11,363 bases of DNA. It comes from a virus (Duplodnaviria; Heunggongvirae; Uroviricota; Caudoviricetes). Both the position numbers and the translations under genes were made by a program. This document shows, piece by piece, positions 4,853-5,280 of the stretch. The stretch lies in the IMG/VR virus record IMGVR_UViG_2740892322_000008, one strand, 5' to 3'. Numbering within the stretch: the first letter of the stretch is position 1; each line of letters begins with the position of its first letter. The notes under the pieces are model-generated. The model was not told where the DNA came from. It did no database searches and worked only from the letters and a program-made list of their open reading frames with translations.

Positions 4853-5059
4853 TTAGTGATTCAGGCCGTTGCCGCGTCCGTCGAGAAAAACTTCCACGAG
4901 CAAATCACGGGTATAAGTGCGCTCGATGCCGCGATGCAGATAAAGCCGTCCGCGTAAATTAGCTGATGCAGTCCAGGTACCATCTTTGTGTTTGACCAGC
5001 ATTCCTGGCATGACCGCACCGCGATTAACGGTCTGCGTTCCGTAATGTTGATGAACCAT
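4853..5059 (-). CDS. Hypothetical small protein (68 aa from internal ATG; 96 aa if the upstream ATG at 5143 is used)
   Basis: First ORF downstream of the putative pL. The ATG at 5059..5057 is preceded by a strong SD (CAGGAG, 5-nt spacer); the upstream ATG at 5143 has only a weak GAGG. No recognisable domain. Occupies the position of kil/cIII in lambda. Confidence 0.5.
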
Positions 5060-5280
5060 AAAAACTCCTGCCCGTAAGCTGGGCTGCTGAACATATAGAG
5101 ACTTCTGCGCGTATTCAGGCGGTGGATGGCCGCCGGTTGTCATAACTAAGCCGCCTCGTTGAAGCGACTAAGGTATGAAATGTTGAGTTAATTTCAGCTG
5201 GTCACACCGACGTTCACGCGTCCGTTTCACCCCTCGCACTCCCCGAAGCCTGCTGAAATTCAAACTGCGGATCTAAGCGG

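Follow-up and report, generated by a model that had tools for sequence, protein, structure and literature searches.

The locus considered here is a short open reading frame (ORF) on the minus strand of the window, that is, the whole 11,363-nt stretch of DNA that was analysed, which takes in the left arm of a lambdoid prophage, integrated beside icd, together with its immunity region. According to the ORF list and to a reading of the sequence itself, the ORF runs to 96 codons (4853-5143), and an internal ATG at 5059 within it would give a product of 68 amino acids. A preliminary description had presented it as an uncharacterised ORF of 68 or 96 residues and as the first gene after the pL promoter, and had considered it well placed to encode some host-interacting factor. 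Three questions are raised by such a locus: which of the two products is made, to which protein family it belongs, and what it would do to the host cell.

Genomic Context of the Locus

The genes of the window are arranged in the order int, xis, small genes, exo (3013-3693), bet (3690-4475), gam (4481-4777), and the ORF under study, here called kil, past which a gap of ~510 nt is followed by a CI-type repressor gene (5655-6344), cro (6449-6679), a YdaT-domain gene, O, P, and a large inverse-autotransporter gene. The cI-type gene is divergent from cro, and its product is a repressor of the S24 peptidase type in RefSeq. No ORF of at least 40 aa is found between the kil ORF and the repressor gene (5144-5654). 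The pL promoter (Table 1) overlaps operator repeats (GTTGTT..AACAAC) reaching ~5415 and is a 95% mirror repeat of pR at 6389-6418. In an alignment of ten phages, two immunity types share the -35/-10 register and are near-identical from ~5327, the other immunity type having TTGATA-17-TATTAT in the same register as the pL of the window. The placement of pL, together with the gene order, indicates that the leftward early operon has the kil ORF as its first gene, behind a leader of ~270 nt. The earlier placement of the ORF, first after pL and in the kil slot next to gam-bet-exo, was therefore sound. The intrinsic terminator of the cI transcript, just upstream of pL, is kept in 10 of 10 phages despite their differing upstream content.

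Table 1. Features of the kil locus and its leader, with positions in the window
Feature	Position	Strand	Description	Basis
kil CDS	4853-5059 (stop codon included)	minus	68 aa, KilR-family cell division inhibitor (by homology)	profiles, BLASTP, RefSeq, dN/dS
Shine-Dalgarno sequence	5065-5069	minus	AGGAG, 5 nt upstream of ATG 5059	direct sequence reading
In-frame codons before kil	5060-5143	minus	28 codons; leader, not conserved protein	homologue comparison
Hairpin H2	5118-5134	minus	GGCGG-CCAUCCA-CCGCC; no T-run in window	fold, relatives
Hairpin H1	5149-5169	minus	9 bp; 3' arm opens with GAGG	covariation, fold
Stem at 5' end of predicted pL transcript	5281-5332	minus	10 bp, UCAUCGCAAC...GUUGCGAUGA	inverted repeat, folds
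pL promoter	5337-5365	minus	-35 TTGACG 5365-5360; -10 TTAAAT 5342-5337; 17-nt spacer; start ~5330 (inferred)	mirror repeat, alignment
Intrinsic terminator closing the cI (pRM) transcript	5516-5533	minus	CCCGGTCACCGTGCCGGG then TTTTCTTTTG; just upstream of pL	

Other features of the immunity region were also recorded. The first ATG of the repressor ORF (6410, 251 aa) falls inside the pR/operator region, and the real start of the repressor is at 6344 (229 aa), matching RefSeq and PhiR47_2. Phages of the second immunity type share the C-terminal domain of this repressor and differ in its N-terminal part and in the operators. The slot between cI and pL corresponds to that of lambda rexAB, and the cargo lying between cI and the cI terminator varies in relatives, which carry GevAT, a HipA-like pair, a lipoprotein, or other genes. 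The window keeps only the 3' remnant of a gevA-like antitoxin gene at ~5540-5640 (minus strand), which ends in PIFALGSNIKPPQ at its own stop and is broken by a stop codon; a literature search on GevA/GevT returned nothing relevant. On the right side, the gene in the cII position (6749-7288) is called 'cII' in several phage records. In RefSeq it is a 179-aa YdaT-domain protein and no homologue of lambda CII, which points to a Rac-like (RacR/YdaS/YdaT) early-right region. The inverse-autotransporter (intimin/invasin-like) gene, 1183 aa, occupies 9252-11363 and runs off the end of the window. Together with an alpha/beta hydrolase gene, it lies in an insertion that separates the replication gene P from the nin region (15252-19883 in the related sequence L015), and the insertion resembles a cargo block of the adhesin type carried by ST131-like genomes.

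Reading Frame and Start Codon of kil

The homologues of kil in Klebsiella, Citrobacter, Enterobacter, Shimwellia, and Salmonella have 67-68 aa and begin with the N-terminus M(V/I)xxHYGT, and the 28 codons that precede ATG 5059 in the window are missing or unrelated in the homologues of other genera. The strong Shine-Dalgarno sequence earlier noted at the internal ATG was confirmed by reading the sequence; its AGGAG is invariant among 10 related phages in the alignment and is unpaired in the predicted RNA fold.

If the 96-aa form from ATG 5143 were made, alone or beside the 68-aa form, the product would be a Kil protein with a 28-residue N-terminal extension beginning with MTTGGHPPPEYAQK. The frame is open from 5143, and the 96-codon ORF is present in 49 of the 55 same-lineage viral loci among the matches listed. 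In addition, GAGG stands 10 nt upstream of ATG 5143, and long versions of the protein are annotated in several GenBank phage records. However, both this GAGG and ATG 5143 are base-paired in a covarying hairpin of the leader, which is described below, and the same ATG opens unrelated ORFs elsewhere, the conserved block GCGCAGAAGTCTTG being read in two different frames among phages. Moreover, the fusion is broken and kil stays intact in PhiR30_1, by a +1 insertion between ATG 5143 and ATG 5059, and in five of the 55 same-lineage viral loci among the matches listed, where kil is out of frame with the upstream ATG. The family profile (NCBIfam NF008465) begins at residue 29 of the long form, and RefSeq uses the short form. 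An extended Kil protein is thus very unlikely. Of the two lengths first offered, 68 aa is supported by the homologues, the profile start, and the frame breaks, and 96 aa is not; on these comparative grounds, the translation start of kil can be regarded as settled at ATG 5059.

The kil frame shows a dN/dS of 0.039 against HK225 and of 0.063 against Klebsiella phage Mulock, compared with values above 2.7 in the two alternative frames for both phages. Of the changes in the kil core among 10 close phages, 10 are synonymous and one is non-synonymous. As judged from these substitutions, purifying selection acts on the kil reading frame. The values above 2.7 also dispose of an overlapping 77-aa ORF (4861-5094, minus strand), which is so annotated in PhiR34_1 (one GenBank record, PV340559), and which belongs to no family. 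That this ORF is the real gene, or that the locus is a decaying remnant, as the frameshifted kil variants in databases might suggest, is a reading already refuted by the substitution pattern and retains practically no probability. Intact copies of kil are present in 2178 E. coli genomes and across genera, which argues against decay.

Frameshifts are found inside the database copies P0004, P0006, P0037, P0045, P0050, and P0054, in which residues ~30-55 are scrambled and the frame is then restored. Either errors of assembly or the inactivation of a toxic gene could account for these copies.

Family Identity and Predicted Fold

Both the 68- and 96-aa readings match PHROG 294, 'Kil protein for bacterial septation inhibition', with E values from ~1e-38 to 1.3e-37, and positions 13-80 of the 83 in this profile align with residues 1-68 of the kil product. 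Both readings also match NCBIfam NF008465, 'FtsZ inhibitor protein', residues 1-68 lying on profile positions 1-70 (E 1.8e-17); the score of 63.1 bits falls short of the curated cut-off of 92 bits (NF008465 / PRK11354), which places the window protein in a sister subfamily and not in KilR proper. In a BLASTP comparison with KilR of the K-12 Rac prophage, 36% identity was obtained over 61 aa (E 9e-13), with residue 1 of both proteins aligned. Rac KilR itself lies on the PHROG 294 profile with an E value of 7.5e-35, and this PHROG also takes in phi80 Kil and HK639 gp41.

The precomputed Pfam assignment PF27398 is carried by KilR and by all database homologues of the window protein, whose identity in the aligned part reaches 100%. 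A local Pfam-A scan at E <=1, run on a copy that lacks the matching model, gave no match for the window protein, and a PDB sequence search with the family profile found nothing. Among 1.84 billion representative proteins, the profile search recovered just 87 clusters, which marks the family as narrow.

The gene is a kil of the KilR family (PHROG 294) and not a member of the lambda Kil family, and by homology its product is very probably a host cell division inhibitor. The preliminary description had called the ORF uncharacterised and without recognisable motif, and neither statement holds, since profile and pairwise searches match the KilR family confidently and RefSeq already names the 68-aa product. 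The novelty of the ORF is lost with this confident match to a characterised protein, Rac KilR.

An AlphaFold2 model of the 68-aa product (pLDDT 86) places strands at residues 8-12, 20-24, 27-35, 38-43, 46-50, and 54-59, both ends being less confident. The product is thus predicted to fold into a small, SH3-like beta-barrel, flanked by 7 floppy residues at the N-terminus and by a C-terminal tail of 9 residues. The structure prediction that had been proposed for the 68-aa product thus yields a small beta-barrel as reported for KilR, the published model of which combines a core rich in beta-strands with N- and C-termini that are short and disordered (PMC12482147). The C-terminal tail is kept within the subfamily of the window protein. 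The core residues and an invariant tail glycine are common to this subfamily and that of KilR.

Relationship to Known Kil Proteins

Rac KilR (b1352) resembles the window protein in its membership of PHROG 294 and PF27398, in its predicted small beta-barrel with floppy ends, and in being encoded by a lambdoid prophage in an early-left region that is under repressor control. It differs in length (73 versus 68 aa) and in the tail after the last strand, which has 12 residues (GRDGLPVKAESW) in KilR and 9 (DGRGNGLNH), unlike in sequence, in the window protein. The surroundings differ as well: kilR is preceded by ydaG, ydaF, and the kilS sRNA and adjoins recET, whereas kil of the window is first after pL and beside gam-bet-exo.

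Relatives are also found in other phages, with identities to the window Kil of 85% for HK225, 84% for mEp237, 81% for Mulock, 41% for phi80, and 38% for HK639. The Kil proteins of these five phages belong to the same family, are encoded in the early-left operon, and were annotated by homology. In these phages, however, the kil module comes after other genes, which are N in phi80 and small ORFs in the rest, and after an intrinsic terminator; the lineage of the window has neither.

Lambda Kil (47 aa) shares with the window protein the slot beside gam and the reported target pathway, FtsZ (PMC12482147; PMC3961180). Nevertheless, no BLASTP alignment between the two proteins is obtained at E <=100, and lambda Kil falls into PHROGs 3924 and 2461. 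In addition, lambda Kil is predicted to be helical according to the title of PMC11762379, whereas the window protein is modelled as all-beta. ZipA is required by lambda Kil and not by KilR (PMC12482147). Similarly, P22 Kil (62 aa) occupies the pL-operon slot and bears the label 'Kil' in PHROGs, but it gives no BLASTP alignment with the window protein and belongs to PHROG 2394. The operon slot of the window gene is one that it shares with kil genes of three unrelated families.

Likely Target and Proposed Mechanism

Expression of KilR causes filamentation that is suppressible by FtsZ, disrupts Z-rings, and requires the C-terminal tail for its effect, and the toxicity of KilR is relieved by extra FtsZ (PMC12482147; PMC5793797). 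By homology to Rac KilR at 36% identity, FtsZ is most likely the target of the window protein, and filamentation its phenotype. The guess of a host-interacting factor, on whose list a division inhibitor stood first, accordingly agrees with KilR homology, and what has to be given up is the orphan status of the ORF.

A KilR homologue with a changed target, acting not on FtsZ but on MreB only, on another component of the envelope or division machinery, or as an exclusion or anti-defence factor, could also be considered. The identity to KilR is only 36% with a score under the NCBIfam subfamily cut-off, the tail that bears KilR activity is unlike in sequence, and KilR itself hits more than one target (PMC12482147). 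However, the two subfamilies agree in their core residues and in an invariant glycine of the tail, the operon slot is the one used by the three unrelated kil families, and no defence-system model of PADLOC matched the window protein. A change of target is unlikely on this evidence, and FtsZ is retained below as the most likely target.

A proposed sequence of events can be outlined on this basis. As long as the prophage is kept in a lysogen, pL would be held shut by the repressor (CI-type, S24 peptidase). Once the repressor is lost, pL would transcribe the leader of ~270 nt, kil, and then gam-bet-exo, and the strong Shine-Dalgarno sequence would allow Kil to be made early after pL opens. Kil would then block division that depends on the FtsZ ring, and possibly also MreB-dependent elongation, and the induced cell would filament during phage replication and recombination. 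When the last 3 residues are removed from KilR, cells still filament and rounding is lost (PMC12482147). The tail of the window protein is 3 residues shorter than that of KilR, and by analogy with the truncated KilR the window protein may act as a pure division inhibitor.

A Conserved Two-Hairpin RNA in the Leader

The leader of the pL transcript contains a conserved element at 5118-5177 (minus strand), which covers the first 26 nt of the 96-aa ORF and ~35 nt upstream of it. From its 5' side, it consists of a CAUACC box, the hairpin H1, the sequence UUAGUU, and then AUGACAACCGGCGGCCAUCCACCGCC with the hairpin H2. In the predicted fold, H1 is extended outward by pairing of the CAUA box (~5177-5173) with a UUAUG that includes ATG 5143, and both the GAGG and AUG 5143 are base-paired in this extended form. 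Six of the nine H1 pairs vary on both sides across 24 variants, and 97% of the H1 cells are paired, a share that drops to 37-59% once the partners are shifted. H1 has a covariation score of 0.479, versus 0.168 +/- 0.019 in shuffles, none of which reached it (0/500). G-U pairs are frequent in H1 and identify the structured strand as the pL transcript. H2 is in some relatives a terminator stem with a T-run, and HK639 annotates the homologous hairpin and its T-run as a terminator.

The mini-ORF that starts at AUG 5143 encodes MTTGGHPPP, and the 3' arm of H2 is made up of its three proline codons. The same ATG opens ORFs of 20-28 codons with unrelated tails in HK225, phi80, HK639, and KO-TP1; in phages other than that of the window, such unrelated ORFs range over 16-40 codons. 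Since the tail of the mini-ORF differs in length and frame between phages, it is no conserved peptide. Through a lineage-specific deletion after H2, the mini-ORF has come to share the frame of kil, which explains the 96-codon ORF of the window.

The element is carried by HK225, phi80, HK639, and phages of Klebsiella, Enterobacter, and Salmonella, usually right after an intrinsic terminator. It is present in at least 135 enterobacterial phage or prophage loci (including L005, L006, L017-L020, and L021-L140), and an exact-pattern scan found it in at least 120 viral contigs and also in the genomes of 17 Enterobacteriaceae species. A kil of PHROG 294 lies within 2.5 kb downstream of the element in 108 of 135 loci among the matches listed. 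No Rfam family matched the element, and a literature search for the core leader sequence gave nothing relevant. The element might act as a translation-coupled switch, so far undescribed and perhaps sensitive to EF-P, through which the toxic kil module is controlled, and whose mini-ORF has become joined in frame to kil in the lineage of the window; this proposal is tentative and rather doubtful.

Several other candidates for the leader were rejected. An Arg-rich ORF of 31 codons starting with TTG (5168-5263) was considered as a vestigial N; its variation is mostly non-synonymous, and its stop codon is CAG in half of the relatives. To look for a put-like antiterminator, the putL and putR sequences of HK022 and putL of HK639 were combined in a covariance model, which finds nothing in the leader and reaches its best match, 12 bits, inside bet and O. 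Neither an N gene nor a put-like RNA was found after pL in this phage group. No boxA is present in the leader at up to 3 mismatches; the sole Nus-type signal is a perfect 13-nt boxA, CGCTCTTTAACAA, after cro (6692-6704), which is not followed by a boxB hairpin. An Rfam search of 4700-6500 at E <=1 gave just a chance match to a microRNA, and the leader shows no similarity to Rac kilS or to the region upstream of kilR. Furthermore, the fold of the leader as a whole is no more stable than that of shuffled sequence (z = -0.32), and its C/G profile, considered with a view to a Rho site, has only weak, non-diagnostic C-rich stretches.

Occurrence, Annotation, and Perspectives

The RefSeq CDS WP_000233576.1, 'phage encoded cell division inhibitor protein', coincides exactly with the 68-aa kil; this annotation was read from an E. 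coli chromosome that matches window positions 1-11296 at 99.9%. Among 5426 complete E. coli genomes, 2193 (~40%) carry the 207-nt kil gene at >=90% identity under the RefSeq name. It is thus already known and annotated, and with its public name and its presence in ~40% of complete E. coli genomes it is an ordinary prophage division inhibitor gene.

The GenBank phage records disagree on kil, giving either a 77-aa 'hypothetical protein' read in the wrong frame or an over-long product of 96-139 aa that runs through the non-coding leader. Inconsistent calls are found at 4508-4741 in L001, 3154-3540 in L002, 2802-3179 in L010, 2805-3011 in L013, and 2758-3177 in L014. The RefSeq 68-aa call is supported over the versions in these phage records.

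For the ORF itself, little changes, as the window holds one more copy of a very common annotated prophage gene, but its start codon and frame are now fixed, in contrast to several GenBank phage records. The single unexpected item, which could repay more work, is the leader RNA that precedes kil modules. No published experiment was found on this KilR-like subfamily, which occurs in ~40% of complete E. coli genomes, ST131 among them. Rac KilR has been tied to stress tolerance, and direct study of the subfamily may therefore be worthwhile.
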